Origin: an uncultured Planctomycetota bacterium
GTDB lineage: Bacteria > Planctomycetota > Planctomycetia > Isosphaerales > Isosphaeraceae
Assembly (NCBI GenBank): GCA_963845755.1
Contig: CAWJTV010000041.1
Coordinates: 64,001-128,000, forward strand
Length of the DNA stretch: 64,000 nucleotides
Direction: 5' to 3'
How positions within the stretch are numbered: the first letter of the stretch is position 1; the number at the start of each line of letters is the position of its first letter. This document shows, piece after piece, positions 10,441 through 50,489 of the stretch. Both the position numbers and the translations under genes were made by a program. The notes under the pieces are model-generated. The model searched no databases and was not told where the DNA came from. It worked only from the letters and a program-made list of their open reading frames with translations.

Positions 10441-10571
10441 GGGGGATTCCGGATTCCCGATTCCGGATTCCGGATTCCGGATTCCCGATTCCGAATTCCG
10501 GATTCCCGATTCCGGATGGGATGATTTCGGATTGTGGAATCGGGAATTCTTGAATCGGGAATTCTGAATCC
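10441..10571. repeat. Inverted heptamer arrays (GGATTCC-type, then GGAATC-type)
   Basis: About 10 tandem ggattcc/cgattcc units followed by complementary ggaatcg/ggaattc units, between xpb and the next gene. Confidence 0.85.
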
Positions 10572-10623
10572 CTGTTTGATCGCGGAACCGTCGCGTTTGA
10601 CTCGAACCGGAAATTTGTAAACC

Positions 10624-10847
10624 ATGACCCGACCACACGGCCGAATCCCGGTGAAACTCCACAAGTGCGTGACCCTGATTCGCACCGCCGAGCCGGTGCT
10701 GGCCGAAGAGCTGCTGGCGCGGAAGTCGTTGCGCGCTGGGTCCTGGGCCGACTCTCCGATACGGTGCTCCTCGTCCAGCCGGACGAGTCGGATGCGGTGA
10801 TCGAGGAACTTCGCAAGATGGGGCACACGCCGCGCGTGGTGCGCTGA
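10624..10847 (+). CDS. Small (~74 aa) protein, TFIIH p8/Tfb5-like fold suspected (one-base frameshift near 10731)
   Basis: Restoring one G at ttg(g)cgcgc gives MTRPHGRIPVKLHKCVTLIRTAEPVLAEELLARKSLARWVLGRLSDTVLLVQPDESDAVIEELRKMGHTPRVVR. Codon usage is GC3-rich and the gene sits between two operon genes. Confidence 0.7.
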
Positions 10848-10860
10848 AGGGTCCTTGCCC

Positions 10861-13164: not shown

Positions 13165-13214
13165 GCAGGGTACCCCGGATGCCAGCAAGCCGGCGCGCCA
13201 ATCGTCGGGCGACG

Positions 13215-13494
13215 TCAGTGCCTGTATCCTCGGGCGGAAGGACCGCGATACGACTCGATCGCCCCTGGGCGAGTCCACCACCAGTAGCCGAGCACGCAGA
13301 GAAGGCCCACGCCGACCAGGATGAATCCTGGAGGCTCGGGGACCAATGCGACGGTCGTGATTCCCGTGAAGGGGAAGGAGTTCTGGTAGCAGATTCCAGA
13401 ATGCCCGACGCTCTCGTTTCCAGGGGGTTTCCGGGATACTGCAGAACGTCAGCTCCGGCGCGGGATACTCGATGACCTCGCTCATCGTTTTCAC
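13215..13494 (-). pseudogene. Chimeric relic: DUF5678-like N-terminus joined out of frame to a PEP-CTERM-like tail
   Basis: One frame reads MSEVIEYPAPELTF...PWKRERRAFWNLLPELL. From about 13380 another frame reads SFPFTGITTVALVPEPPGFILVGVGLLCVLGYWWWTR...*. Confidence 0.5.
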
Positions 13495-13608
13495 TTTGAC
13501 GATCGGGAGGATCCGTAGGTTAGCCTTTCTCCCAATCTACTCCATCGTCTGCTCGGTTAAACAGCCGATTGTCGGTCATGGTGCATTGCATCTGCGGAGA
13601 CGTCTCGA

Positions 13609-15226
13609 TCATCCTCCCCGCGTTGTCGGCGCCTGATCGCCGGGGCCCGGCTTGACGACCTGCCAGTGCGGTTTCGTAGGTGACGTGGTCGTTGAGTCTA
13701 TCTGATCCTGGCCGGCGGGAGGCACGACCTTGAGATCGGTCGGCTCGCGGGTTGGAGCAGGGGCCGGGGAGGCCGGGATCGGATGCCAGGCGATGCGCTG
13801 GGTGGGGCCGGAGGCCGGCTGAGGCGCGCGGTTGCCGGAGTCGACCGGGTCGGGGATCCCCAGCAGTTTGGGGTGCGGGAGCATCACGTCTCCCTCACCG
13901 CCGACGGCCCGCCGCAGCTTGCGTTCGTCGGCGTCTGGTGACTGGGCGCGCGCCACCGGCGTCAGCGTGCGCCGGGGCCGGGCGGGCCGGGCGGATGGCG
14001 ATTCTGATGGCGATGGCGAGCGATCGTCGGCGACCAGGGTGCCCGAATTCGAGCCATAGTTGACCGGAGCGTACAGCGCCATCAGCTTGTTGCGGTCGAG
14101 GATGCTGTAGATCGACCGAGGCGTGGCATAGAGGCCGTGATCGCCCCGTGGCTCGGCGAAGTTGCACACGCCCGCGATGTAGAAATCGGTGGTGAACAGG
14201 CCGCCGCCGGAACGGCCTTGCTTGGGCGCCTTCCAGCACTCCATCGCCTCGTACTCGGGGTTGCCGGCCAGGCCCTGCATCCGCGGGTTGAGGATCTTGG
14301 TATACCAGGCCGTGGCGTCGTGACCCTCCGGGCAGCCGACTGCAAGCATCTTCATGGGGTGCGGCGTGCTCTTGGGCTCCCAGTGGGCCGGCACGACCCG
14401 GCTGGCCGGAAGCTGCCGGCCCGGACGGATCCGGATCAGCCCGACGTCGCGCGTGAAGTCGTAGTCCACCGCCTCGCCTCGGACCGACTCGAGATAGCCG
14501 ACCTGGGCCGGATTCGTGCCTTGTAGCTGGCCGTCGAACAGGTCGATGACGATCTTGCGCGGGAACTGCTTCGGATCGGACGCCTGCCGGCTCCCCTCGA
14601 GTTTGAAGATATGGCGCACGTCAGGATGAGCGACTGCTGGGGCGTGCTGTAGATGATCGTCCCCGAGCCGAAGCCGGTCGAATGAGGGCCGATGATCTTG
14701 ATCCGAACGACCGTCTCCGCCGGGTGCGGATTGACGAAGCTCGCGGATCGTCGGGTCTCCGACTCCGGTCGATCGTCCGGGTCGTCGCGACGAGTGCGCG
14801 ACCGGGCTCCGGCGGCTTCATCATCGTCGTCATCCGAGTCGGCCCGGGAACGTTCGCGTGTGACGACATGCGCGTTGGAGTTCTCAGGCGGCTGGGCCTT
14901 CGCCTTGGCCGCCACGTAGAACCTGGCCAGCGCGGCGGCGGACTGGAGTCCGCTGGTGCGGTCGATTTCTCGGCCTGAGGCGTCGACGACGATGAAGGTC
15001 GGGACGCGGTCGACACGGTAACGCGCCGCCACATCGCTGTCCTGGTCAAGGTCGATCGACTTGACTGGATAATGTTTTCGGATCAGTTCCTTGACGGCCC
15101 CGCGCATCTGCCGGCAGGGGCGCACCCTTCGGCGTGGAAGTCGAGCAAGACGGGCGCGTCAACCGCGTCACTCGACGGGGCATTCGTCGCGGTGAGCAGA
15201 GCGAGCAGCAGGGTGGCAAGGGTCAT
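13609..15226 (-). CDS. Secreted thioredoxin-domain + trypsin-like serine protease (frameshifts near 15120 and 14615)
   Basis: Signal peptide MTLATLLLALLTA; LLDFHAE-C-PCRQM and VPTF thioredoxin motifs; protease triad LTCA(H), DVGLI, GRSGGGLF; Pro-rich tail. Confidence 0.82.
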
Positions 15227-29611: not shown

Positions 29612-31173
29612 ATGACGTCCGTTCCCAAGCCTCCTCCTCCTCACATCGTGATCGTCGGCGGCGGGCTGGCCGGCCTGGCGGTCGCGTCGAGCCTCGTGGA
29701 TCGCGGCCTGCGCATCACGCTCCTGGAAAGCCGCCCGCGGCTGGGCGGCCGGGCCAGCTCGTTCCCCGATCCGGTGACCGGCGAACTCGTCAACAACTGC
29801 CAGCACGTGAGCATGGCTTGCTGTACGAATCTGGCGGACTTCTGCCGGCGAGTCGGCATCGATACGATGCTTCGCCGCGAGCCCGCGTTGATCTTCCTCG
29901 GCCCCGAGGGCGCGATCTCGCGGTTCCGCACCGGACCAGGGCCGGCGCCGTTCCATCTGGCCGGCAGTTTCCTCTCGGCGCGGTTCCTGGGCCTGCGCGA
30001 CAAGCTGCGCGTGGCCTACGGGCTGGCTTGCCTGGCCTGGAGCCGCGACGATCGGCCCGGCGAGTCGTTCGCCGACTGGCTCTTGCGGCACGGCCAGACC
30101 TTGCGAGCCATCAACCTGTTCTGGGGTGCCGTGCTCGTCTCGGCGTTGAACGAGCGGCTCGACCAGATGGACGTCGGCCATGCCCGCAAGGTGTTCCTCG
30201 ACGGGTTTCTCCGCAACCGGACGGGTTTTCAGTTGGAGCTGCCCTTGGTCCCGCTGGGCGAGCTCTACGGCACGCGGCTGGAGGCGCTGGTTGGGCGATC
30301 GTGGCGTCGCGGTCCGGCTGACGACGGGGGCCCGCGCAGTTCGAGCCGGATAACGATGGTGCGACCGGCGGCGTGGTCCTCCGGTCGGGCGAGTTTCTCG
30401 CCGCCGACTTCGTCATCCTGGCCGTCCCGTTCGACCGGGTTCCGGACCTCATCCCCGCGGAGTTGAGGGATCGCATACCGACGGTGGCACATCTCAGTGC
30501 GATGCAGGCCGCGCCCATAACGGGCGTCCACCTCTGGTTCGACCGGCCGGTCTGTCCGTTCGACCACGTCGTGACGCCGGGCCGGCTGATTCAGTGGGTG
30601 TTCAACCACACGGCGATCCAGGGCCGGACGGCGCCCGTGGAGATGACGGATACGCCCGCGACGATCCCCGGTGGCGGTCAGTACCTGCAAGTGGTGATCA
30701 GCGCATCGTACGACCTGCTGTCGCTCGACAAGCTGACGATCCGGGACCGTGTGCTCGCGGAGCTGGCCGAGATCTGGCCGGTGGCCCAGTCGGCGAACCT
30801 GCTGCGATGGTGGGTCGTGACGGAGCACGGAGCGACCTTCGCGGTCCGGCCGGGCATCGAGACGCTTCGCCCGCCGCAGCGGACGCCGATTGACGGCTTC
30901 TTCCTGGCCGGCGACTGGACCGACACCGGCTGGCCGGCCACGATGGAAGGAGCCGTCCGCAGTGGCTACCTGGCCGCCCAGGAGATCCTCAAGGACCTCG
31001 ATCGGCCCACCCGGCTGATCCGCCCGGGGCTCAGGTCGGGCGCGTTGCCGCGCTGGCTCTTCGGTTCGGCCGAGTTCCGGCCCGCCCGATCCCCGTTGCC
31101 ACCGCCGGTTGCTGACGAACCGTCGACGGCCGCCATTCCCCATCCGCTTCCCGTCCCGACCGAGGGCCGCTGA
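29612..31173 (+). CDS. hpnE: Hydroxysqualene dehydroxylase HpnE (frameshift near 30290-30340)
   Basis: IVGGGLAGLA Rossmann motif, LGGRASSF, NCQHVSMACCTN, SALNE, ATF, FLAGDWTDTGWPATMEGAVRSG. Confidence 0.92.
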
Positions 31174-34184: not shown

Positions 34185-34235
34185 GATATCCGGATTAGTG
34201 CAAAGTTGTGTGGCGATCCGCCGAGCGGCCTCGAT

Positions 34236-37200
34236 TCATCTCGTCCCGCCCGACGCGGGCGGTGGATTGGCCAGCTCGCGCTTCGAGAGCAGGTACGCGA
34301 TCAGTCGATAGAAATCCTCCTCGGGGATTTGATCGACCAGGTTGGCCGGCATCGGAGACAACTGCGAGGTCTGGCGCTCCTGGACGGTCGACCGGGGTAC
34401 GCGGACCTCCTTTCCCTGGGCGTCGGCCAGGACCAGCACCTCGCCCTCCTCGCGCAGCAGAAGTCCCGAGACGACCTGGCCGTTCTCGAGGGAGAGGTTG
34501 GTGGTCCGGAACGCCTGGTCCACGTTGCGATTCGGGTCGAGGATATCCTCGACGAGGCGGTCGACGCCGCGGCTGCCGATGCCGTCGAGTTGCGGCCCGA
34601 TCCGCGCGCCCTTGCCGCCGACCTGGTGGCAGATCCCGCAGTGTTTCTCGAACACGGGGTTCCCGGGTTCGGGCTGATGGGCCGCCGTGCGGAAGCCGGC
34701 GCGTCGGCGATCGATCAAGCGCGCCGAGCTTCTGGTCGGCGGGAGGGAGACCGGCGAGGAGGGATTTGAGCCGCTCCTGCAACCGCCGGGGTTTCGCCTG
34801 CTGGAGCGCCAGGGCGACGCGCTGATCCTGGAGCAATCTCGCCGAAGCCTTGCCGGCCGCGATCGCATCCAGGAGCGCCTCGGCGCCGGCGCGACTGCGG
34901 GCCAGTCCCACGGCGATCGCGGCCTGGAGCGATCCGGGCGCCAGGGAGACGATCTCGACCAGCAGGCGCGGCGCCTCCGGGCGACCGCTCGCGGCGAAGA
35001 GCCCGGCGGCAGTCTCGCGAAGTTCGATCGGCGCGGCCGGGTCACGCAGCACGTTCGCGACGACCGGACCGTTGTTCGCGGGGTCGATCGCCATCAGGGC
35101 CGTCAGCGCGGAGGAACGTTGTGCCGACGGTGCGGTCATCTTCTCCGCGACGTCCTTGAGTGTCCCCTGGACTTCCTTGAGATGGAGCCCGCTGGCCAGC
35201 TCGATCCCCAGGTTCATGGTCCCGGGGTCGTTCGACCCCAGGAGCGATCGGGCATGCGCGACCGCGAGCTCGTGCATCGCCGCGCCCGGTGGCGCCCCGC
35301 GTTCCTGGAACCCTTGATGCGCCGCCTTGATCAGCTCGGCCTGAACGTGTTGGCCGTGCCGCTCGGCGCGGCCGACCAGCCCGGTCAAGCCGCCGATCTG
35401 GTCGAGTGCCCCGTACCGGGCGATGTGGTGGACGAAGCGGAGCTGGTTCTCCGCCGTCTCGTCCGACTTCTGGAGGTAGGCCAGCAAGTACCCGGCCGCT
35501 TGCGGCGACGGGACGCCCAGCGCGACCTCGGCGATGTCGCGGCGATCGCGTTCGGAGAGCCCGAGCGTCTCCAGTCCGCTCCAGACGTCGGCGGTCTTCA
35601 ACTGGTCCCGCAGCGCCATGCGCGTGACGTGGACGAGATGGGTATCGTCGGCCGGGGTTGTCTGGCGGAGGGCCAGCAGCGGGCGGACGTTCGCCAGGGC
35701 CGGATGCGCCCGAGCACTTCGGCCGCGGCGCGGCGGACGAACGGGTCCGTGTCGTTCAGGGCGTGCAGGGCCAGCCCGTGCGACGGCTCCGGAAGCTCAT
35801 TCCGCTCGATCAACGTCTTGAGGTGATGGACTCTCAACTCGCGATCCGGGTCCGTCGCGGCATTGAGCCAGATGGTCTCGTCAACGGCACCCAGACGCTG
35901 CAACACCCACAATCCGTGTACGCGCTGGCGGGCCGGCGATTCGTGCCTCATGATCGAGCGAATCGCGATCGCGACATCCTCACCCCGTTTCCCATGCTCG
36001 ACGAGCTGGTTGGCCGCCGAGAGCCGCACGCTCAGGTTGGGATGGCCGAGGTCGGCGATCAGGTCGTTGACGGAGGACCTGGTCCGATCGATGGCCGGCG
36101 GGGCAGGGGGCTGCTTGCCGTCGGTTCCCCGGTAGACGATCCGCCAGATTCGGCCGCTGGTGCGATCCCGGCCCGGGTGGGTCAGCGACACTTCATAGTG
36201 TCCGATGATCCGGTTGTAGAAGTCGGCGACGTAGAGCGCACCGTCGGGGCCGAGCTCGATGTTGACGGGACGGAACCAGTTATCCTCGCTCCAGACGAAG
36301 TCGGGCTGCTCGATCCCCTTGGGTGTCGAGCCGTGCCACTCGATCCGGTCGTGGTTAACCCGGTTGGTGACGACGTTGCCGATGAAGACCGTGCCGCGAT
36401 ACGCCTCGGGGAACTGGTCGGCCGCGTAATAGCTGATGCCGGCGATCCCCGTCGAGCCGTGGTCGTGGGTCACCATCTCGGGGCCGAAACCCAGGCCGTC
36501 ATCCGGCTTGCCGAAGCTGGGATACCAGGCGCCCCGGAGGAGCTGATAGACCGGTCGGCTGTGACAATCGCAGGAATAGAGGTTGCCCAGCGGGTCGAAC
36601 GCCAGTCCGAATGGGTTGACCTGCCCGTGGGTGAGGTACTCGGCGTGCGAGCCGTCGGGCCGGATCCGGTAGGTGTTGCCCGAGTTCATGTGGATCGATC
36701 GATGGTCGCTCCCCTGGACGTTCGAGTCGTTCGCATAGCCGTGACAGGCGTAGATCCAGCCATCAAAGCCCCAGGTAAACGCGTTGGTCATCCCGTGTGT
36801 GTCGCGATGGCCGATGATGCCGTAGTGCACCTGGCGCACGTCGGCCCTGCCGTCGCCATCGGTGTCCCGCATCAAGTAAATGTTCGGGATGGTGTGGATG
36901 ATCGCCTCCCGGCCGGACGGATACGGCAAGAGACCGATCGGGATGTTCAGACCGTCGGCGAAGGTCTGGATCTTGCCGGCGCGGCCGTCGGGCCGGAACT
37001 CCGAGAGGATCTTCACCGAGTCGCGGCCGGGTGTCCCTTCCGGCTTCGGGAACGGGTATTCGACGGTATCCGTCACCCAGAGCCGTCCGAGGTCGTCGAA
37101 GGCCAGGTTCAGCGGCTTGTGGATCTCCGGCTCCGGCGGCGACCAGTTGAATCTCGAAGCCCGGCGGGACGTGGAGGGCCTTGCGCTCCTCGTCCGGCGA

Positions 37201-37323
37201 TCGGTGCGGGAACGAGGAGACATTCTCGACCGGAGCCGGTTTCTGGGCGCGGACCAGATCCGGGCCAACGGTAAAAAGTGCCATAACGAGGAGCCCGGGC
37301 AGGTACACGCGCGGAATCGGCAT
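34236..37323 (-). CDS. PVC-type heme-binding CxxCH membrane-bound dehydrogenase protein (about 3 frameshifts)
   Basis: VPPGFEIQLVA, LAFDDLGRLWV, DTDGDGRAD, NPFGLAFD, FRPVNIELGPDGALYVADFYN; HEAT-like repeats; CGICH; IGPQLDG; SPMP. Confidence 0.9.
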
Positions 37324-38506
37324 CACATCTCTCCAGAAGGTCCTTGTCCCGATCACGGGCGGGATTCGGTATCGTCCAAACCTCTGTTTTAGGGCGTCGC
37401 CTCGTTGCGCTCAAGCCATTGGTGACACGGTTGCTCGCGCTGCGGGTCGCGCTGCGAGGTCCTGCCATTCTGGCATCTTGCCTTGTTCGATCGGACGAGG
37501 TCATTGCGTGCCGTCATCCAACGTCGCCGAGGCTGAATGCAAGCATGATCGTGTCGATTGGCTTCGTTTTATCGATTTCGGGCAGGAGTGCGTGACCGTT
37601 TGGAGTCTCTTGGAGCTTGGATGCAAGCATAACCACGACGAACTGGCTTCGTTTTCGCCGTTAGGCGGCGGGGCCTGGTGGGTTTGTTCGCGCGATTCGG
37701 TGCGAAAGTCTGGGTGATCCGCACAATCGATACTTTCCAGATAACGCGATGCAGCGTTCGAGCAGGGTACTCGCTGGATTTCGGACGGCCGACCGTCTGC
37801 ACGGATGGTCACTCAGTGGCACAGACTGGCGACTTTTTGGGCGGCTGAAAATCCGTTTCTCGGCTTGCGACCCGGGGTTGGGGCGTCCGACACGGAAACC
37901 TGGGTCATGGTCTCTCCAGGGTGGTCCATGGTCGGTGGCCCGTGGTCAGGAATTGTAAGGAAGAGAATGGGGAGATCAGACGGCAGTCTGATGATTCTCT
38001 GATCTGAAGACAAAGCCTTGGGCACGACGGAAGTGATCCGTGAGAACGGGAATCGGGCCTGCGTGGGACGGCATCCTGGGCCGAGCGATCTCAGAGAATT
38101 CCCGCGCAAGACCCCTATAAATAGTATAACGCCACTTTCGAATTCCGTTAATGCACCTACTGTGGAATTGGCCGATTTTTTCGACACAACCCTTGAGATG
38201 ACTGAGCGATACGAAAATCTTGACGATTTTACAACCAGGATGACTCGCGTCCGGCCGATTTCCACGAAGTCATGTTGCGATGTCTCACCAAGTCCCCGGA
38301 CGATCGATTCTCCGACGTCTCCAGGCGCGGGAGAAGGCTCTCTCGGGATGATCGGGATTGGTCCGAGGACGGCGCCGCCGAATGGTGGCGATCCCGGCGT
38401 GAGGGACAAGAGAGTCGGGAGCCGAAGGATCGCAGTTCGTGAGCAATTCCTGCGGAAGGCGACAATTCCGCCCTCTGAAACGTGTCGAGGACGCTACGCT
38501 TGCCAG

Positions 38507-38800
38507 TCACGGGAGATGGATAAGGTCTCGCTCGACTTCCGCCCGCATCGCGGGTCGGAGCGTATCGGGGGTGCCGAGATCGACCGGGCAGTCCAGCATG
38601 TCCTCCAGGTCGAGCTTCAGACCCATGAAGCGGTCGAAGTCGGCTTTTCCGTCGAAGGTCACGAGGTTGTCGACGTCGCTCCCATCCCGATCGTCGCCCC
38701 GAGCGATCGAGCCGAAGACGGCCAATGATCGGATCCCGTAGGACTGGCGCAGGGCGGGAGCCTCGGCTTTCAGACGGTCGAGGATCGCCTTTCGGTTCAT
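38507..38800 (-). CDS. Minimal nucleotidyltransferase (MNT/MntA-type antitoxin)
   Basis: YGIRSLAVFGSIARGDDRDGSDVDNLV...LKLDLEDMLDCPVDL; GGAG RBS. Confidence 0.9.
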   Translation of the reverse strand: MNRKAILDRLKAEAPALRQSYGIRSLAVFGSIARGDDRDGSDVDNLVTFDGKADFDRFMGLKLDLEDMLDCPVDLGTPDTLRPAMRAEVERDLIHLP

Positions 38801-38921
38801 GTCGGCGACTCCGGTCCGGTCAACGAGACGATCTCAACGTCCGGATTCTATCTCATGCGGGAGGACCTGGTCCATTTCGGGACGAAATCGCCGGCGGTGA
38901 GGATCGCCTTCGATCCTCACA

Positions 38922-41405
38922 TTATCCTTTTCGCAGAAGCCAGCGTCGGAACAGCGGTGCACGCAGCCGGAAGTTGTCGCCTTCGGTGACAACGAGCAGC
39001 CGGCGCTTCAGCGAGCCGGCCACGGCGTTATCCGCGGGCGGCGGCTGGGTTTCTCGCATCCGAAAACCCTGGAGGTAGTCGAGCTCGCCCGCCATCCGGT
39101 TCTCGCGGATCAGCAACGCGTGAAATACGATGTCCCCTCGGACGACCGCCTCATCGAGCGCCGACTCCCACATCGTGGCGTCGAGCCGATGCTGGCCGGA
39201 TTCGTTGAGCAAGTCAACCACGGTTTCGGCGATCAACTGCACCAGGTGCGGCCACCCGCCCGCCTCGGCGTGGATGCGCTCGATCCCACCGTCGCCCCAG
39301 AAGGCCGGCGAGAAATGAGGCCGTTCGCGATCGCTCAGCCAGAGGGTCGCGTGCTTGAGTGGCTCGGTCAGGAGGAGCCGCGTTTCGTCCTCGGTGAACG
39401 GCGGGACCTCGACCGTTCGCGCGCTGACGAGGTATGAGGTCCACGGGGCGGCGGTCAACTCCTCGATCTCGTGGCTCCCCGCGAGCAGCCAGGTCAGGTT
39501 CCTGTGCGATTGGATCGACTCCTGAATCAGCGCGAGCAGGTCTTCCGAGAAGACCTTCTCACCGATCTTGCGATCGATGTTCTCATACTCGTCGAGCGCC
39601 AGGATCAACCGCCGATTCTTGTTCGCGAGCGCCCGGTTGCAGTCTGCAAGGAGCCACTCCAGCCCCCGCAGGTCGCCCGGAGGATCGTCCTCCAGTTCAC
39701 ATGCCTTCTGCAGCCGCGTCCCTACCAGTTCGCAGAACGATTGGAGCGAAGTGAACGCCTTCGCTTCCTGCATCGAGATCACGACCACGCGAACGCTGCT
39801 CGGGAGGAACCCGCTCAGATTCTTGAGCACAGTTGACTTGCCCATCCGCCTGCGTCCGTAGAACACGACACCGGGACAATCGGTCGCGAGCATGACATGC
39901 CGCTCCAGTCGGCCGAAAACCCGATCCCGAGGAACGAAAGCCTCCCGATTTCGATCGACGGGCAAGCCCGCGTGGAAGACCTGGACCGTCAGCTCACGGC
40001 TTGCGATGCGACGAATCTCGTCCCGCTGTCGCTCTGCGATGACTCGCCACCGCTCGGCTGCCGCCAGGAACTCGGAGGCGAGCGGTTCTTGAAGTTTGGC
40101 GACTCGATGGCGGAAGTTCTCCACGGCCGTGCACAAGGCTTGCGCATAGGTCTCGCGAAAAACCGGACGGTCCATCGCGTTCAATCGCGTCTGCAACAGC
40201 GCGATCTCGCCGGCCATCCTGCGGACGTCCTCGGTTTCTGCCAGGAACCCCTTTTCTCCCTCCGGGAGACTCGCCACGATCTCGCCGAGGCGTATCAAGT
40301 CGGAGGCCCGTCCCGCCTCGCGGGCCAGGAGCCGCGCCCGCGCGCGCAAGGCGGGCGTCCGCTGGCTCGGGTAGTGGTCGATCAGTCGCTCGATCTCCAC
40401 GATCCCCGCGGAGGGCTCCTGTTCCGCGTAGGCCGCGAGAAGATGGTCCAGGTCTCGGAACGGGACCGAGCAGCAGTCGTCCCAGGCCACAGGGTGGAAG
40501 GGATACCAGTTGAACCGCGCCTTCGGCCAGATGAAGAGCAGACTGACCAGATTGTAGTAGTAACGTAGGACAGCGATCACGACGACGGTCCCGACAGCGA
40601 TCCCGATACCTATGCCGACACCTATCCCGATCGCTATCCCGATGGCGATCCCGACGATGATGCCGACGGCGATCCCGATGGCTATGCCCAACGTGATCCC
40701 GAACGTGATCCCGAACGCGATCTCTCCGGCGCCCTCGAAATTGACGCCGAAGGCGATCCCGAACGGGACACCGAAGGCAATGCCGAAGGCGATCCCGAAG
40801 GCGATCCCGAACGGGACACCGAAGGCGATCCCGAAGGCGATCCCGAATGGGACGCCGAAGGTGATCCCGAAGGCGATCCCAATGGTGATCCCGATGGCGA
40901 ACCCATCGGCGATCCCGATGACAATCCCGAAGGCGATCCCGATGGCGACTCCGATGGTAACTCCGACAGCGAACCCATCGGCGATCCCGACGGCGACCCC
41001 GATCGTGATCCCGAAGGTGACCCCGAAAGTGATGCCATCCGCGCTTCCGATGCCAATCCCGACCCCGATCCCGATGGCGATCCCGATCCCGATCCCAATA
41101 GCCATTCCGACGGCAATCCCGACGCCGTGGGAAAGGAGGGACGCTGTAAGGGTTATGGTGGTTTTTTCGGCCGAAAGGCCGAGTGCCCCGAACAGCAGGC
41201 CGCGACCGAGGACGCAGGTGAGAGCGACGAGAGGCAATGCATGGGCCACCAGCCGCAAGCCGGCTTCGATTTGTTGTGACGTCGCGCCGGTCTGAAGGGC
41301 TTCGTAGAATCGCTTGGGCTTTCGATAGAGCAAAGCGAGCCACCACAGGGCGTGCTTTTGGTCGCTCCAGCGGAGCCGGATCTCGTGCAACGGCCTGGGT
41401 ATCAT
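38922..41405 (-). CDS. Membrane protein with Gly-x-x-x repeat region and C-terminal STAND-like AAA+ ATPase
   Basis: Start MIPRPLHEIRL overlaps the upstream stop (ATGA). About 180 aa of GIAF/GIAI/GVPF repeats; Walker A YGRRRMGKST; Walker B LILALDEYE; AGSH; GGWPHLVQ (GxP). Confidence 0.85.
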   Translation of the reverse strand: MIPRPLHEIRLRWSDQKHALWWLALLYRKPKRFYEALQTGATSQQIEAGLRLVAHALPLVALTCVLGRGLLFGALGLSAEKTTITLTASLLSHGVGIAVGMAIGIGIGIAIGIGVGIGIGSADGITFGVTFGITIGVAVGIADGFAVGVTIGVAIGIAFGIVIGIADGFAIGITIGIAFGITFGVPFGIAFGIAFGVPFGIAFGIAFGIAFGVPFGIAFGVNFEGAGEIAFGITFGITLGIAIGIAVGIIVGIAIGIAIGIGVGIGIGIAVGTVVVIAVLRYYYNLVSLLFIWPKARFNWYPFHPVAWDDCCSVPFRDLDHLLAAYAEQEPSAGIVEIERLIDHYPSQRTPALRARARLLAREAGRASDLIRLGEIVASLPEGEKGFLAETEDVRRMAGEIALLQTRLNAMDRPVFRETYAQALCTAVENFRHRVAKLQEPLASEFLAAAERWRVIAERQRDEIRRIASRELTVQVFHAGLPVDRNREAFVPRDRVFGRLERHVMLATDCPGVVFYGRRRMGKSTVLKNLSGFLPSSVRVVVISMQEAKAFTSLQSFCELVGTRLQKACELEDDPPGDLRGLEWLLADCNRALANKNRRLILALDEYENIDRKIGEKVFSEDLLALIQESIQSHRNLTWLLAGSHEIEELTAAPWTSYLVSARTVEVPPFTEDETRLLLTEPLKHATLWLSDRERPHFSPAFWGDGGIERIHAEAGGWPHLVQLIAETVVDLLNESGQHRLDATMWESALDEAVVRGDIVFHALLIRENRMAGELDYLQGFRMRETQPPPADNAVAGSLKRRLLVVTEGDNFRLRAPLFRRWLLRKG
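40585..41130 (-). repeat. Degenerate 12-nt coding tandem repeat (Gly zipper)
   Basis: Variants of gcgatcccgaag repeated dozens of times, encoding Gly at every 4th residue. Confidence 0.85.
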
Positions 41406-42321
41406 GGCCGGCCCTTGAGTTCCACAGATTTTATGGTGATCGTCGACATGGGGTGGTTCTGCGGCAGGAGGCTCGTCAAGGGGGTCCGTGATTGGATCAG
41501 CAGGATGAGCTTGCGGTCTTCCATCAGGTCGCGGAGGGCCACGAATAGGTCGACTTCGTAATCGTCCAGTCGGTGGCTCACGTGGTCGAACGAGGTGAGG
41601 GCGAGACGCGGAGCCCGCGGCAAGGCTTTGAGAGCATGACCTAGCTCGACCAGATCCTTCGGCTTGTCTGGAACCCGGCCATGTCGCCGGCAACCACATT
41701 GCTTCAAGATCTCCTGGACCAGTGAGGGGCGAGACATCGCCTCGGTCGAGTCGAGCTTCACGACGCCCAGGCCGAGCGCGGGGTTGTGGCGGAGGTGATC
41801 GAGGAGCGGGCGCCAGCGGGCCTGGCCCATCACGACCAGGTTGACCGACTCGCCCCGATCGAGCTGAACCTGGACCTGGTCGTGGGCGCGGAGCCATTCG
41901 GCGCGGCGGAACCGAGGTCGAGCTTGCAGGTCTTCAGCAACAAGTCCCAGGGATCGGGCTTGCCATCGTCGCGCAGGTCCACGTAGAGCGGGTCGGGGCG
42001 CTTGATGGCCGGTGGCAATTTGCAATCGATTCGCAGGACGGGGATCGTGACTCCCCTTTCGAACTTGGGATCGCGGGCGATCGCCCGTTTCATCTCGTGC
42101 TGGCAGGGCTTGCTCGCCAGATACTCGGGTGATAGCACAAGGACGTTCAGCTCGGCACGGTCCTGGACATCGTCCATCTGCCGATAAACGGCTCGCGCCG
42201 CCTCGAACTGCTCACGGTCAATCAGCATCTCGGCGCCGGCAGCCCTCAATACGGGCACCAGGCGCTCCCACACCCATTCGCTCTGATGACGGCTATAACT
42301 GACGAAAACGGATGGGGTCAC
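41402..42321 (-). CDS. TIR-domain protein with C-terminal degenerate (inactive STAND-like) domain (frameshift near 41900)
   Basis: VFVSYSR...VLSPEYLASKPCQHEMKRA...IPVL (TIR with the catalytic-position Glu). The C-terminal part has SVNLVVMG, RLALTSFDH and LILLIQSRTPL but no GKS/T. GTG start with GGAG; alternative ATG at 42360. Confidence 0.82.
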
Positions 42322-42421: not shown

Positions 42422-43015
42422 TCACTCCCTCCGGATCACGCGCCGGGCAATGACAGCCTCGAGCCAGGCCGTGCGTTCTTCCTCGGTCGCCGCGAACGGG
42501 GACCATTCCTCGCGGATGAGCGGCACGTCGATCGTGTCGCGATTGGCGGTGAGCAGGGTTTCGATATCGACCTGGTCCTGGGGTCGGAAGGCGACCATCT
42601 TGGTCAGGATCAGCCCCTCGGCCGTGGCCACCCGGACGGTGTGGCTCTCCGTCCATTCCAGGGGGGCGGCGGCGTCGAGCGTTCGGGAGTAGAGGGGGAG
42701 GACCGGCTTGAGCCAGTCGATGCGAACATGGCCGAACGAGAACGACGTCATATACTCCCGGACGTATTGCTTGATGACGAGAGCCGGGTCGAGGGCGAAA
42801 CCTCGTTGGACGAGGTCATCCAGCAGCCCGGGCAAGACGATCTGCGGGACGTCGAGGAGGAAGTCGGCATCCTGAGTGAACCGGGGACGGCCGCGCAGCA
42901 CGAATGCCAGTCCGCCGATGAGCGCGTAGCGGATCGAGCGGGCGTCGAACGCCTCGGCCAAGGATCCGACGGCCCGCACGGCATCGTCGGGCAAGAGATG
43001 GGAGTCAGCGCGCAT
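42422..43015 (-). CDS. Nucleotidyltransferase toxin-like protein (MenT1/AbiEii-like)
   Basis: YALIGGLAFVLRGRPRFTQDADF, VATAEGLILTK, RPQDQVDI. Confidence 0.8.
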   Translation of the reverse strand: MRADSHLLPDDAVRAVGSLAEAFDARSIRYALIGGLAFVLRGRPRFTQDADFLLDVPQIVLPGLLDDLVQRGFALDPALVIKQYVREYMTSFSFGHVRIDWLKPVLPLYSRTLDAAAPLEWTESHTVRVATAEGLILTKMVAFRPQDQVDIETLLTANRDTIDVPLIREEWSPFAATEEERTAWLEAVIARRVIRRE

Positions 43016-43238
43016 GACGTGCGATGAACTCCTGGATGTTCCGTTGCGCCAGAAGCTTCTGCTCTTCCGAATACTGCTTCGCCCAAGCCGCCTTCGGCGA
43101 GATGCTCATCAAGCGCATACCGGTGGCCATCATGCCTCGAATCGTTTGGATGCGCTCCTCCGGCGTGAGTGCCCGGAAGCTGGCGACATCTTCGAGGATC
43201 ACGTCGGTCTCACTGGGGAACTTGATGGGGAGGTCCAT
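43005..43238 (-). CDS. Small helical protein, probable antitoxin partner
   Basis: 77 aa containing RALTPEERI; overlaps the NTase start; GGAG RBS. Confidence 0.7.
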   Translation of the reverse strand: MDLPIKFPSETDVILEDVASFRALTPEERIQTIRGMMATGMRLMSISPKAAWAKQYSEEQKLLAQRNIQEFIARHAR

Positions 43239-43823: not shown

Positions 43824-44270
43824 GGATGGGATCGCCCCATGGCTGTCGAGGGGGAAATCGCAGGGAACACCATCTTCATTTTGCCAGACCGACGCCGCCG
43901 ATGCGAGGGGATGTCAACTCGAAACGGCTGATCACCTGTTGAACGGCGGCGGGTGGCCCTTGGGGGTTCCGGTCGCCCGGCTGAGATCGCGCGGAGAGCC
44001 CCGCTTTGCGCGTCGATTGGCTGCGGGTCGGATGGCGCAAGAGAGCGCTCGGAATCAGTTGGGGAATTTTAATAATTTCGCTTGCATATCGGGTAGTCGA
44101 TCGACTACAAGTGTCTTATTCAGGAAGAGAGCCCGGTTCCTGGAGGGCGAATGCGGGCCCCGTCGATCCGAGTTCTGGTGCTTCTCTGCACGCTGCGCTT
44201 CGGGTGATCGCGCGGAATCACAAGTCGTAGGGAAGACTGTCGTCTACTCCATCGAGGTGACTTGACCGTG

Positions 44271-46371
44271 ATGCGTCTGGCCATCGTCATCCTCCTGTTC
44301 GCAACGGCGCCGGCCCTGGCGCAGGTGAAGGACGGCAAGGATGACAAAGTTACGAACGACGATCCGGCCCGACCTCTGCAGATGCCCCCGGCATCGACGG
44401 AGGTCAAGGAGGCGATCGACGATTTCGATCGCTTCCAGCGGCGCGGTGCCTGGGAACGTGCCTTGAAGGCCCTTTACACGATCCCCGAGGCGCAGACCCT
44501 CCGATTCGTCGACGGCGAGAAGGGTTTCATCATCCCGATCGAGCGGAAACGGCGGACGATCCTCGGCGCGCTGCCGCCGGACGGCCAGGCCGCGTGCCGG
44601 CTGTTCTACGACGCCGAGGCGAAGAAGCTGCTCGATGCGGCCGACGGGCCGTCGGAGCAGAAGAACCTCGAGCGCATCTTCTCCGCCTATTTCGTCACGT
44701 CGGTCGGCGACAATGCGGCCGACCGGCTGGGCGATCTCTACTTCGAGCTGGGCCGCTTCGACCGGGCGGCCGATTGCTGGCTGGCGATCCTGCGCGAACG
44801 CCCCGACACGGACCTCGTCGCCGGCCCTGATCGCGGTGAAGGCCGGCGTGGCGCTGATCCGCGCGGGGCGTCGATCGGAGTTCGACCAGGTCCGCGCCGA
44901 CCTGGCGGGCCGCTACGCCGACGAGACGGTGACCATCGGCGGGCAAAAGGCGACGGCGGGCGAGCTGCTCGAAGCGCCTCATCGCCGACGACCCGAGCTC
45001 GGGAGCGGAGAAGCCGTCAACCCCGGCCGCCGACTCGGGCCCTGACCTCGCCGGGTCGGTCGACGTGGCCTGGCAGTTGCGATTTGCCGAGTCGATCGAG
45101 GCCGGCATGACGCCGCCGGAACTGACCCAGTGGGAGGCCAATTCCATCAGCGTCGCCGTACCGGCCGTGACGATCGACGGCTCGACGCTCTATCGCCAAC
45201 TACCTCGGGCATATCTTCGCCTTGGACCTGAAGAGCGGGAAACTGCTCTGGCGCTCCGCATCCTTCCATAACCTCGACGTCCTGGCGATGCAGCAGCAGG
45301 TCCGATTCATGGACGCGAGCCGATTCGCGATCGTCGCGTCGGGCGAACACGTCTGGTGCCTGGCCCGGGACGTGAAGGACCAGAACTTCTTCGCCCCGTT
45401 CCAGTTGAACTGCCGTCGGGCCGACAACGGCGAGGTCGTCTGGAAATCGGGCGACCTGGCCGACTACGCCCAGGTTCGACCTCGTCGGTCCTCCGCTCCT
45501 GGCCGACGGCAAGCTGTTCATCACGGCCAAGACCGGCGCGAACCCCCAGATGCCGCAGCAGGGCCAGCCGCAGCAGCTCGTCCTGGCGATCCAGCCGCAC
45601 GACGGAAAGATCCTCTGGAAGACCGAGGTCGGCCTGTTCCGGCAAGGGGGGCAGCAATACTTCTGCTATGGTTACGGCAACGAGTCGTCGCCCCAGCCGC
45701 AACTGATCTACCGGGCGGGCGCGGTCTACGTGGATACGCATATCGGCGTGCTGGGACGGCTCGACGCCGACACCGGCGTGCTGGATTGGGGATATGGCTA
45801 CAAGACCGACCCGTTCCAGTCGGGGTATCGCCGATTCTACTATTACATGTCGAAGGAGCCGACGGCCGCGAGTAGTCCACCCCTGTCAATCCGGCGAAGT
45901 GTTCCTGATCAAGGGGGTCCAGTCGGAGCGTCTCTACGCCATCGAGCCCAACCGGATGAAGGTCCTCTGGGAGCGGCCGATCACGAAGTCGTCGCGGCTG
46001 CTCGGCGTCGGCGAGCATACCTTGTTCCTCGGCGGGGCGGAGATCAGCGCCATGGACCTCGAGACGCGGGAACTCTCCTGGGCGATCCGGTCCCGAACGG
46101 CAGCATGGAGGCGCGCGTCCTGGTCCGTCCGGACGGCCTCTGGCAACTGACGTCCCGCGGCATCTTCGAGATCGACCCGAAATCGGGCCAGGTCCGCCGG
46201 ATCTTCCGCGGCAAGGACCTCGGCGTCGTGGGCGGCGACCTGCTGCTGACCGACCAGTGGCTCCTGGCCGTTTCCAATCGCACGATCTCCGCCTACCCGC
46301 GCCGGTCGTCCGGGGCCCCCGTCGCCGCCCGCCACGATCCCGCGACCCCAAAGGAGAAGGCTTCGAAATGA
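44271..46371 (+). CDS. Secreted TPR + PQQ-like beta-propeller (BamB-like) protein (multiple frameshifts)
   Basis: Signal peptide MRLAIVILLFATAPALA; TPR LGDLYFELGRFDRAADCW; repeated ALDLKSGKLLW / DGKILWK / LDADTGVLDW. Confidence 0.75.
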
Positions 46372-47296
46372 ATGCCCACCACGATGATGCCGAGAGTCGT
46401 CGAGCCGGCCCGGCCCGCAATCGCGGCCATCGCCCTCGCGCTGGCCCTGCTCGGGGCCGCCGGCCCGGCCCAAGCCCAGTTCTTCGATCCGACGGGGGGC
46501 ATGATGGCCCCGACGCCGAACATCGAGGGGTTCACCGTCTCCGGGAAGGGGCATGCGGAAGCCAAGCCGAACCTCGTGGAGATCGACATGGATGTCAGCG
46601 CCTCGTCGGAGCTGACCGCCGATGCGATCGTCAAGTACCGCGATGCCAAGAAGCGGATCCGCGACGCGTTCTCCGCATTGAAGCTCGCGAACGTCGCCGT
46701 GGAGGAGCGCGGGCTGATGGTCGACCAGAAAGGCCAGATGCAGAGTCCCTACTTCTTCGACTACCAGCCGAATACGCGCAACAAGACCGAGGTGCAGCTC
46801 TCGCGGAAGCTGGTCGCCAAGGCCACCGATATCCGCAAGATGGACGAGGAGAGCGTGCTGCAACTGGTCGGCAGGCTGCTCGACGTCGCCCAGGACGCCG
46901 GCGCCCACGTCGGTCCTCAAATCAACATGTATGATTACTATTACTATGGATACAATCGGAATCGCGGGGCGGGCCTGGTCCGATTCGTCCTCGAGGATTT
47001 CGACAAGCTCCAGGAGGAGGCGTACGAGAAGGCGATCGCCGATGCGCGGGCTCGCGCGGAGCGGCTGGCCCGGTTGAGCCACGTCGAGCTGGGGCCGATC
47101 GTGGCGATCCGGGAGGTCTGCGGTGCCCGGCGAACGGCAGGCGACGGGCGACGACGAGATGCCACGCAAGCGGCTGGAGATGTCGAAGTTTCAGGAGATC
47201 CCGATCCGGGTGGAGTTGCTGGTGCGTTTCGAGGTTCATTCCAAGACCCGCGAACAAGGGAAGGACTGGACCATGACGAGAATCCCACACTCATGA
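46372..47296 (+). CDS. SIMPL (DUF541) domain protein (frameshift near 47120; end approximate)
   Basis: Signal peptide; FTVSGKGHAEAKPN; EAYEKAIADARARAERLARLSHVELGPIVAIRE; IRVELLVRF in the shifted frame. Confidence 0.78.
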
Positions 47297-48397
47297 TCGC
47301 GATCGGCTGGAGGCCGCGCACGACGCGTCGCGCGTTCCTGGACCATTGTCGCACGGGAGCCGTCGCATCCCTCGCCGGCGCCGGCTGCCTGGCGGGCCTC
47401 CGGAGTGCCCGGGCGGCGGACAGGGAGGTGCTGCCGAAGCACGTGACGCCGGAGACGCTCCGGGCCGTCGTGAAAGGGTTGGATTTCCTCAAGGCCCAGC
47501 AGGCCGAGGAAGGCTCGTGGATCAGCGACCCCGGCGGCCAGGCTTATCCGGTGGCCATGACCGGCCTGGCGGGCACGGCGATGCTGGCCCACGGCAACTC
47601 GCCAACTCGCGGGAATTATGCGAAGAGCATGCAGGGGGCCGTCGAGTACCTGGTGCGCTGCGGCACGCACGACGGGGCTGATCACCGGCCCGAACCAGGA
47701 CAGCGGCCAGCCGATGCACGGGCACGGCTTCGCGCTGATGTTCCTCGCGTGCGTCTACGGGATGATCACCAAGGAGTCGCTCCGCAGGCAGGTGCAGATC
47801 GTCGTCCGCAAGGCCGTGACGTTGACCAGCCAGGGCCAGAGCGGTGCGGGCGGCTGGACCTACATCCCCGGCGCCGGCGACGAAGGCTCGGTGACCGTCA
47901 CCCAGGTCCAGGCCCTGCGCGCGGCCCACAACGCGGGGTTCCTCGTCCCGCGCGGCGTGATCGAGGAGGCGGTCAAGTACCTGGAGAAATGCCGGACGGC
48001 CGAGGGCGGGATCCGGTATTCGCTCGTCTCCGGCGGCGGGCCCCGGCTGCCGATCTCGGCGGCCGCCGTGGCGACCCTCTACAACGCGGGCCAGTTCGAC
48101 AGCACCATCGCGACCGACTGCTTGAAGTACGTCTGGGAGCAGTTCCAGGCCCAGGAGGGATTTTCCAAGGGGGGTGGGCACGACTTCTATACGCATCTCT
48201 ACGCCTCCCAGGGGTTCTACATGGCCGGCGACCAGTACTGGGACAAGTATTTCCCGAAGACGCGCGACCAGTTGATCGCCATGCAAGGACCCGACGGGTC
48301 CTGGAACGGCGACTGCATCGGCCAGGTCTACGGCACCGCCATCGCCGCCATCATCTTGCAGCTACCGTACAAGTATCTTCCGATTTTCCAGCGTTGA
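47273..48397 (+). CDS. Tat-exported prenyltransferase/squalene-oxidase-repeat (alpha/alpha barrel) protein (frameshifts)
   Basis: TRRAFL Tat motif; GLDFLKAQQAEEGSW, MHGHGFALMFL, QSGAGGWTY, QVQALRAA, QGPDGSW, YLPIFQR. Confidence 0.82.
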
Positions 48398-48464
48398 GTC
48401 CTGGAGGCCAGAGTCGATCCGGGAAGCCGTGTTGACCCCCCACCGGGGCTTGTCGGATAGCCGA

Positions 48465-48518
48465 TCAGGCTTTCCAGTCTGATTCCGAAAACATGTCAGG
48501 CTGGAAAGCCTGACCTAC
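48465..48518. repeat. GTAG-type REP-like inverted pair
   Basis: TCAGGCTTTCCAGTCTGA...GTCAGGCTGGAAAGCCTGACCTAC (minus strand GTAGGTCAGGCTTTCCAGCCTGAC). Confidence 0.75.
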
Positions 48519-48533
48519 TTGAGGGACGCGATC

Positions 48534-49582
<1,049 letters not shown>

Positions 49583-50489
49583 CGCGATCGCGCAGATCTC
49601 GGACCTGACCCTGCGCTCGCGGCGGCTCGTCGAGGGGGCGATCAGCGGCCAGCATCGCAGCCCGTTCCACGGCTTCAACATCGAGTTCGCCGAGTACCGC
49701 GACTACACGCCGGGCGACGACCTCCGCCGCCTGGACTGGCGCGTCTTCGCCCGCTCGGATCGCCATTACATCAAGCAATACGAAGAAGAGAGCAACGTCC
49801 GGGTCACGTTCGTCGTCGACGCCAGCGCCGTCGATGAATTATCGCGGCTCGGCGCCGCTGTCGAAGTTCGACTACGCGGGCACCCTGGTCGTTTCCCTGG
49901 CGATGCTCCTGACCCGCCAGCAGGACCCGGTGGGCCTGGTCCTGTTCGACGAGGCGGCCAGGACCGTCCTGCCCCCCGCCGCGACCCAGACGCAGGTCAT
50001 CGTGATGGCCGGCCTGCTCGAACGTTGCACGCCCGACCCGGAAGACCGAGCTGGGCGGCCTGCTCCACTCGCTCACCGGCCAGTTGCGGCGCCGGAGCCT
50101 GCTGGTCATCGTCTCGGACCTCTTGACCGACCTGGACGCCGTCTACGACAGCCTGAACCGCCTCCGATTCCACGGCCATGAAGTCCTCATGATGCAGGTG
50201 CTCGACCGCGACGAGCTGGAATTGCCCTTCGACGGGCCGACGATCTTCCGCGACATCGAAGGCGAGGAAGAACTGTTCGCCGAGCCCTGGGCGTTCCGCC
50301 GGTCGTATCAGCAGGCCATGCAGGATTTCCTGGAGGGCGTCCGGCGCGAATGCGGCAACCGCGGCTACGATCACGTGCGGTTCCTGACCGATGAGCCGCT
50401 CGGCGACTCGCTCAGCCTGTTCCTGCACTCCCGAGAGGAAATGGGGCGGAGTTCGCGGTAGGGGCGGACTTCCTTGGGCGATGGGAGCT

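Follow-up and report, generated by a model that had tools for sequence, protein, structure and literature searches.

Introduction

Clustered TIR domains cleave NAD+ and STAND ATPases oligomerise upon activation, as in Thoeris, Avs and the NLRs. The bacterial STAND receptors characterised to date possess C-terminal repeat sensors for phage proteins and carry their effector on the same chain. Here, we describe a pair of coupled genes that has neither of these properties, located in a 64,000-nucleotide stretch of an uncultured Planctomycetota genome of the Isosphaeraceae (assembly GCA_963845755.1, contig CAWJTV010000041.1, positions 64,001 to 128,000). This whole stretch is referred to as the window, and coordinates are those of the window. 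Gene 1 joins an N-terminal TIR domain to an ATPase core without a P-loop, and gene 2 encodes a STAND ATPase with a predicted membrane anchor.

Several described systems share part of this plan (Kaur 2020, Kaur 2021 and Lee 2026 are cited throughout from excerpts of those papers). The nSTAND2 systems are mobile operons of two STAND genes, one active and one eroded, with variable effectors and a predicted hetero-oligomer. In these operons a STAND with a winged helix-turn-helix (wHTH) precedes an nSTAND2 protein with wHTH, TPR and a C-terminal GT4 or HEPN effector; an arginine finger is present in both genes, and a membrane region is not described in the excerpts (Kaur 2021, PMC8195603). The pair reported here likewise comprises two adjacent STAND genes, one inactive and effector-fused, but the inactive gene comes first, lacks the lid and winged helix and bears N-terminal effectors, whereas the active gene is predicted to be membrane-anchored. 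The iSTAND and iSTAND2 MoxR-vWA systems also combine an inactive core with swappable N-terminal TIR, caspase-like, trypsin and cyclase domains, and the N-terminal domains found in the gene 1 family belong to the classes listed at iSTAND/VMAP N-termini (Kaur 2020, PMC7159879). Trypco1 lies next to trypsin variants in the wider family of the pair, as it does with iSTAND. The partner of iSTAND is MoxR plus vWA, whereas here it is a membrane STAND. Avs and bNACHT proteins share the STAND switch and TIR-type effector logic, but are single effector-STAND-sensor chains with large C-terminal TPR, WD40 or FGE sensors (Lee 2026, PMC13581612), whereas the pair has no such sensor and places its effector on a second chain. 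Finally, a Gly-rich transmembrane helix has been proposed as the sensor by which EACC1 activates a caspase or cyclase partner (PMC7159879); EACC1, however, is a small single-helix protein without an ATPase, and no EACC1 match was found here.

Our analysis indicates that this pair is a real, conserved and coupled operon, apparently an undescribed variant of two-STAND conflict systems. We propose, at roughly even confidence, that it is a mobile two-gene conflict module, probably anti-phage, in which gene 2 would be a membrane switch, gene 1 its docked effector, and a membrane trigger would cluster the TIR domains into an NADase.

Results

The two genes form a conserved coupled operon

All features of the pair lie on the minus strand. 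Gene 1 (42321..41402) starts with a GTG at 42321, stops with a TGA whose last base is 41402 and is about 305 residues long in homologues; gene 2 (41405..38922) begins with an ATG at 41405 and is a single open frame of 827 residues. A first-pass annotation made from the letters alone had noticed that the stop of gene 1 and the start of gene 2 share an ATGA (41402..41405). This arrangement, typical of translational coupling, is present as annotated, and a 4-base NTGA overlap is conserved in 27 of 31 homologous junctions.

The same annotation had raised the co-occurrence of homologues, and homologues do co-occur. The partner domain, that is, the inactive core of gene 1, lies directly upstream in 18 of the 22 genome loci found with gene 2, and gene 2 sequence lies downstream in 27 of the 29 metagenome loci found with the partner domain (three of the 27 are one broken locus repeated); the pattern searches behind both counts favour close relatives. 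Of the four other genome loci, two begin at a contig end, a third has an internal deletion that fuses the TIR domain with the last part of gene 2, and the fourth, a short fragment, has no partner. In the two metagenome exceptions the partner domain is followed by a WD40-like fragment and by a transposase-like open reading frame (ORF), respectively. Whole-genome searches yielded three partner matches in 301 genomes of one order, all beside gene 2, and ten in 93 genomes of another, nine of them beside gene 2. None of 400 further genomes drawn from the phylum of the host yielded the pair, and its own genome holds no paralogue. Pair-bearing records, all assembled metagenomes, are titled Acidobacteria, Alpha-, Gamma- and Deltaproteobacteria, Poribacteria, Calditrichaceae, Verrucomicrobia and KSB1, and the copies are patchily spread and often broken. 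Distances between gene 1 domains track those between gene 2 sequences (r 0.74, 0 of 2000 permutations), a correlation that relatedness alone can give. Natural single-chain fusions of both genes also occur (P0200 and P0252, single sequences).

In Competibacter-type genomes (L007, L012, L015, L068) the pair adjoins a uvrB-like gene or its remnant, which suggests a shared insertion site. Promoter and terminator scans of the window locus gave signal at chance level; a ten-pair hairpin at 38897-38920, directly past the gene 2 stop, has no T run on the coding strand.

Gene 2 is a STAND-class ATPase with a variable hydrophobic repeat region

Gene 2 had been read as hydrophobic Gxxx repeats, a helical region and an intact P-loop ATPase with GxP, and each of these elements is present. 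An alignment of 52 homologues and a hydropathy plot define an N-terminal motif, L..I.L....H..ALWWL.LLYR.P, and a first hydrophobic helix at residues ~48-78 (41405..41172). The Gly-zipper-like region that follows (residues 95-278; 41124..40569) is a hydrophobic run of 184 residues that contains 50 Gly and 43 GxxxG; in the DNA, a 12-base unit is repeated 46.3 times. Next comes an all-helical conserved domain with an HP..WD motif (residues 281-470; 40565..39996), for which no family name was found: the Atlas offered no more than a lead at 0.77, and fold searches with the whole model were taken up by ATPase matches. The remainder comprises the STAND ATPase, a helical lid and a winged helix (residues 471-827; 39995..38925), with Walker A GRRRMGKS (residues 517-524; 39857-39834), Walker B DE (residues 605-606; 39593-39588), SAR arginine 663 and GWP (717-719).

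Pfam assigns this part to AAA_22 (E 3.8e-9), and the Walker A, SAR and GxP motifs are retained in 114-121 of 121 gene 2 sequences. The structural model has a predicted local distance difference test score (pLDDT) of 84.1, low within the Gly repeats, and matches the archaeal MJ-type ATPases 2qen (Z 22.4, 307 aligned, root-mean-square deviation (rmsd) 3.8) and 2fna (Z 21.1). With Walker A and B, a lid with GxP, a winged helix and an ORC/Cdc6-clade fold, gene 2 is a STAND-class NTPase; it stops at the winged helix, and a C-terminal sensor is absent. As 2qen and 2fna are the best matches of its ATPase, lid and winged helix, gene 2 resembles the MNS-class STANDs (PAB2304/SSO1545), from which it differs by its N-terminal membrane repeats, its helical domain and its coupled inactive partner. 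The Npun2340/2341 family (MNS) was reportedly defined by Leipe et al. in 2004.

The membrane region is 74-271 residues long, with outliers of 445 and 553, in the 77 of 121 sequences in which both borders were found. In several pairs it is 43-63% identical, at 122-261 residues, while the cytoplasmic part is ~90% identical; repeat misassembly may account for part of this length variation. In both loci with a tandem double gene 1 (L004:1423-4939, L038:4600-8354), the N-terminal motif of gene 2 is missing, as is most or the whole of its membrane region. In a third (L014:6853-10719), gene 2 is 1288 residues long and its helical domain and ATPase are duplicated in tandem.

Gene 1 ends in an ATPase core without a P-loop or lid

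The C-terminus of gene 1 had been described as NTPase-like in strand order but without a Walker A lysine, and structural and profile comparisons agree. For its 165 residues, Pfam, PADLOC and NCBIfam yielded no family match above cut-off. These residues form a core (41899..41405) in which the strand SVNLVV is not followed by a P-loop, Walker B has eroded to xFD (HFD), and the chain ends just past strand 5. The model (pLDDT 93.9) has the five-strand ATPase order and matches Cdc6/Orc1 2qby (Z 15.2, rmsd 2.8, 159 aligned); it also matches TnsC, ORC subunits and 2qen, an archaeal STAND. When solved structures were searched by sequence with both domains, no match emerged. A profile built from 18 copies of the core recruited 402 clusters (50% identity). 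In the best 150 homologues GxxxxGK never occurs after strand 1, and 141 terminate within 12 residues of the domain, indicating that the lid and winged helix are gone. Because these ends coincide and the overlap with gene 2 is conserved, we reject a split-gene artefact as the origin of the two-gene layout.

A sister partner family of 30 proteins (L056) exhibits an erosion series at Walker A, from GPPGCGKR through GAEGAGRE and GDPGQGRW to VVPKNEEA. The window core matches the profile of this family with a probability of 97.3% (E 2.6e-11), and the link reaches up to 41 bits, against no more than 9.9 bits for control ORFs. The C-terminus of gene 1 is thus a STAND/ORC-derived ATPase core that has neither P-loop nor lid. 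An origin as a direct duplicate of the gene 2 ATPase was considered; the two are colinear, but the match is weak (hhalign probability 29.5%, P 5.7e-4, at most 12.9 bits). Since this link is far weaker than that to the sister family, we prefer descent from an older partner gene.

As assembled, gene 1 of the window occupies two frames, a TIR frame (42321-41830) and a C-terminal frame that runs to 41402, with a frameshift at ~41896-41905 in the linker between the TIR domain and the inactive core. Alignments with 69 of 69 full-length homologues tested place the switch at ~41896-41902. The host assembly (14.3 Mb, 49 contigs) is 88% complete and, to judge from its PVC-type haem genes, planctomycete-like, and nearby housekeeping genes are equally broken, HpnE into two pieces and a PVC-type haem protein also into pieces; for this reason the frameshift is likely an assembly error. 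Ordinary genes of the window (HpnE, the PVC-type haem protein and a MoxR-like operon) are split at 29612-31173, 34195-37356 and 44262-50461, as in an error-rich assembly. A separate question, which concerns the window copy only, is whether the frameshift is real, gene 1 a pseudogene and the local system dead within a real family. The family has many broken or deleted copies (L015, L019, L021, L047-L050, L053, L068), and the nucleotidyltransferase (MNT) gene that lies downstream lacks an intact HEPN partner ORF. The like splitting of neighbouring housekeeping genes, and the presence of the family's conserved residues in both halves of gene 1 with no additional stop, argue the other way, and we consider a pseudogene improbable.

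The N-terminal domain of gene 1 is interchangeable

The annotated TIR domain with its Glu of C-x-x-E stands: residues 5-121 (42309..41959) match Pfam TIR_2 (E 7.8e-20), and the catalytic Glu76 of C73-x-x-E76 (42096-42094) is kept in 94 of 97 aligned homologues. We surveyed the N-terminal domains of the best 150 of the 402 gene 1 clusters. TIR domains occur in 105, helix-turn-helix (HTH) domains in four and trypsin in two (one along with TIR); cyclase, CHAT, DUF4145, Lon-C and alpha/beta hydrolase domains were found once each. The DUF4145 domain is presumably HEPN-like. Another 32 have fewer than 60 residues ahead of the core and are probably fragments. Variant partners, cyclase-like by sequence in L002 and HTH-like in L013, are located immediately upstream of gene 2. 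TIR is the most frequent of at least nine swappable domains on the gene 1 core.

In more distant operons gene 2 keeps its plan and follows a partner whose Walker A is intact. These include TIR-STAND partners (L054, L055) and a three-gene form composed of Trypco1, a trypsin-STAND with intact Walker A and a Gly-repeat membrane STAND (L057:1660-6005, L058:2482-6747, L063:1795-3814). The window family is thus, within a wider two-STAND operon, the branch in which reduction has gone furthest. Four single, possibly chimeric sequences (P0274, P0275, P0276, P0171) join modules of the family to conflict-type proteins of other kinds, namely a large Avs-like region, a DUF4062-like/NACHT protein, a cyclase-STAND and an AAA_21 ATPase.

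The inactive core is predicted to dock on the active ATP site

Gene 2 residues 275-827 modelled with the inactive core gave a complex score of 0.78, compared with 0.00 for the best of three controls; the mark for this score is reached by 116 of 157 solved complexes and by 2 of 215 mismatched pairs. At least 95% of contacts are shared between runs, with a partner pLDDT of at least 83. On the partner side the modelled interface comprises residues 82-90, 119-131 and 142-162, corresponding to the helices that follow strands 2 and 3, together with the segment preceding strand 5. On the gene 2 side it comprises RAGDP, Walker A Arg519/520, the SMQ loop, His720 of GWPH and the winged helix. The modelled contact is of the usual head-to-tail AAA+ type, with the inactive core on the active ATP site, and the fusions P0200 and P0252 point the same way. 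The first-pass annotation had interpreted the locus as a split NLR-like pair. The complex model is in accord with its co-assembly of an inactive core and an active ATPase, but the pair is not a split NLR, because both genes carry a STAND core, a C-terminal sensor is absent and the TIR domain is interchangeable.

In the mechanism that we propose, gene 2 would be the switch, anchored in the inner membrane by its Gly-repeat helices, with the helical domain and the STAND ATPase on the cytoplasmic side. Gene 1 would be the effector subunit, whose truncated core, unable to bind ATP, would mimic an adjacent STAND protomer and bind the nucleotide face of gene 2 in a head-to-tail manner, in the way of inactive ORC subunits and as the modelled heterodimer suggests. 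A trigger at the membrane, possibly the entry of a phage, a membrane protein of the phage or damage to the envelope, would be read by the variable membrane region and the helical domain. Nucleotide exchange and clustering of gene 2 would follow, bringing the attached N-terminal domains together in a putative oligomer, and the clustered TIR domains would then cleave NAD+, leading either to depletion and arrest or to an ADP-ribose-type signal. A defence role for the pair is what we infer from these features.

The flow of information may instead be reversed, with gene 1 as sensor and brake and gene 2 as a killer pore, an explanation that we regard as unlikely. Here the core would cap the ATP face of gene 2 and block oligomerisation until an invader molecule, or a signal or cleavage by the N-terminal domain, lifted the cap; the uncapped gene 2 would then form a resistosome-like ring, whose Gly-zipper helices would open the pore. 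The model does put the partner on the face needed by the next protomer. Gene 2 retains its own SAR arginine (114 of 121) and so could form a homo-oligomer, and its order of membrane segment, helical bundle and STAND is that of plant CC-NLRs, which are among the fold matches of its ATPase part. Gly zippers do occur in pore formers. A proposal of this type has been made for inactive STANDs, as sensors of invaders or nucleic acids with N-terminal TIR, cyclase or peptidase domains as activators (excerpts of Kaur 2021, PMC8195603). A dedicated pore would, however, be expected to be more constant than a membrane region that varies from 74 to 271 residues, outliers apart, and is nearly absent in some pairs, and no nucleotide-signal-binding domain was found in gene 2.

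Genomic context gives a mixed picture of a defence role

Several observations weigh against the switch-and-effector mechanism. The window copy of gene 1 is frameshifted as assembled, some pairs are nearly without a membrane region (L004, L038, L067), and the HTH and cyclase outputs are not obviously lethal. The inactive core lacks a conserved arginine finger (Lys in 45 of 143); its interface residues are conserved no more than the rest (0.59 vs 0.59), and the modelled interface may owe its score to likeness to ORC-type structures. With respect to defence, PADLOC applied to 150 of 155 flank ORFs of 32 loci detected no restriction, CRISPR or CBASS cluster; its flank matches were only toxin-antitoxin-type or generic-domain, and the flanks are mostly housekeeping. 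Phage and plasmid collections contained no match to the pair, and the sole viral-contig match is weak (23%).

These housekeeping flanks, together with the absence of copies from the phage and plasmid collections, would suit a transmembrane signalling pair of large-genome environmental bacteria, which relays an envelope cue to a second messenger, protease or DNA-binding output and has no part in defence. The existence of cyclase and HTH variants is consistent with such a function, and 391 of 589 STAND clades are not high-confidence defence in the excerpts of Lee 2026 (PMC13581612). The very patchy spread of the pair (0 of 400 genomes in the host phylum, 3 of 301 and 10 of 93 in the two orders), its many broken copies and its HEPN-like, caspase-like and Trypco1-trypsin partners argue for conflict instead. 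Toxin-antitoxin, HNH, HEPN or pYEATS neighbours, recorded by PADLOC and a hand-picked Pfam scan in at least 9 of 32 loci, do so as well, a count that has no background control. On balance a signalling role seems doubtful to us, and we continue to favour the conflict module. For the enrichment in defence islands that the annotation had named as a check, these neighbours are what the loci show; no classic island was found, and enrichment is not demonstrated because the counts have no background rate.

Upstream of the pair in the window, a 77-residue ORF overlaps a DUF6036/AbiEii-like nucleotidyltransferase (43238..42422, minus strand), a probable toxin-antitoxin pair. Downstream lies a minimal MntA-like nucleotidyltransferase (38800..38507, minus strand), with no intact HEPN partner ORF beyond it. 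Both nucleotidyltransferase modules are of toxin-antitoxin type, and neither is a conserved part of the system. The GC content falls to 0.59-0.61 at 37-39 kb of the window. Elsewhere, a PIN toxin-antitoxin pair and a fused DarTG flank the L014 copy, the L018 copy has HNH nuclease and tubulin-like genes at its flanks (L018:3126-4784 and 10523-13807), and a pYEATS gene lies near another (L042:6877-8399).

The pair is not named by existing models

The annotation could match the pair to no named system, and PADLOC, NCBIfam and Pfam scans lead to the same result: no PADLOC or NCBIfam model names it. A literature search found no description of the pair, although its ATPase clade may already appear in Leipe 2004 or in the clade tables of Lee 2026; the searched parts of the Kaur 2021 and Lee 2026 supplements contained none of five or six accessions of members. 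Pfam nSTAND2 (PF20702) matched neither gene 1, gene 2 nor family members. The iSTAND model (PF19995) matched none of 18 aligned domains at E<=1 and none of 150 proteins at E<=0.001; it gave a weak match elsewhere. It also found nothing in the host genome, in a search whose controls were silent too. The next gene is a membrane STAND in 27 of 29 loci, and the MoxR-like operon of the window is 6 kb away on the opposite strand.

For nSTAND6 (PF25201, cut-off 27.7 bits), one of 150 gene 1 homologues reached 20.9 bits, below the cut-off, and two of 26 gene 2 members matched at E>=0.0058; there was none in the genome, and the literature search found no nSTAND6 paper. Gene 2 members have weak matches to ATPase_2 (24 of 26), AAA_14 (25 of 26) and nSTAND1 (10 of 26); AAA_35 matches none of the 26 close members at E<=0.1 and one distant relative. 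Avs models match neither gene. The TIR domain resembles those of Thoeris ThsB and SAVED-TIR proteins (E 1e-5 to 5e-7), with the catalytic Glu, but the TIR part alone matches Thoeris, far under the cut-off (25.6 vs 220 bits, ThcB4), and no ThsA-type effector is nearby.

Discussion

The pair combines an active STAND ATPase that bears a hydrophobic repeat region with a partner whose ATPase core is predicted to occupy the active ATP site. A broader interpretation, which we offer tentatively and hold with rather low confidence, is that it represents an unnamed, widespread class of immune receptor, an ORC-like heteromeric inflammasome in which a STAND senses through an N-terminal membrane region and a stepwise-decayed ATPase serves as a docking adaptor. 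A hypervariable Gly-repeat membrane segment would then sense in place of a C-terminal repeat sensor, and the partner ATPase would have decayed from intact to eroding to lid-less while recruiting any of many effectors.

Surveys that rely on C-terminal sensors or on proximity to defence islands would tend to overlook such a family. The pair is a compact two-gene setting in which to test the proposal that inactive STAND domains act in immunity, and its relatives supply natural intermediates between an active and a lid-less partner. If the proposed mechanism is true, the family would show how a STAND can be triggered at the membrane and how an ATPase core that is no longer active can act as a universal connector for TIR, cyclase, protease and nuclease outputs.

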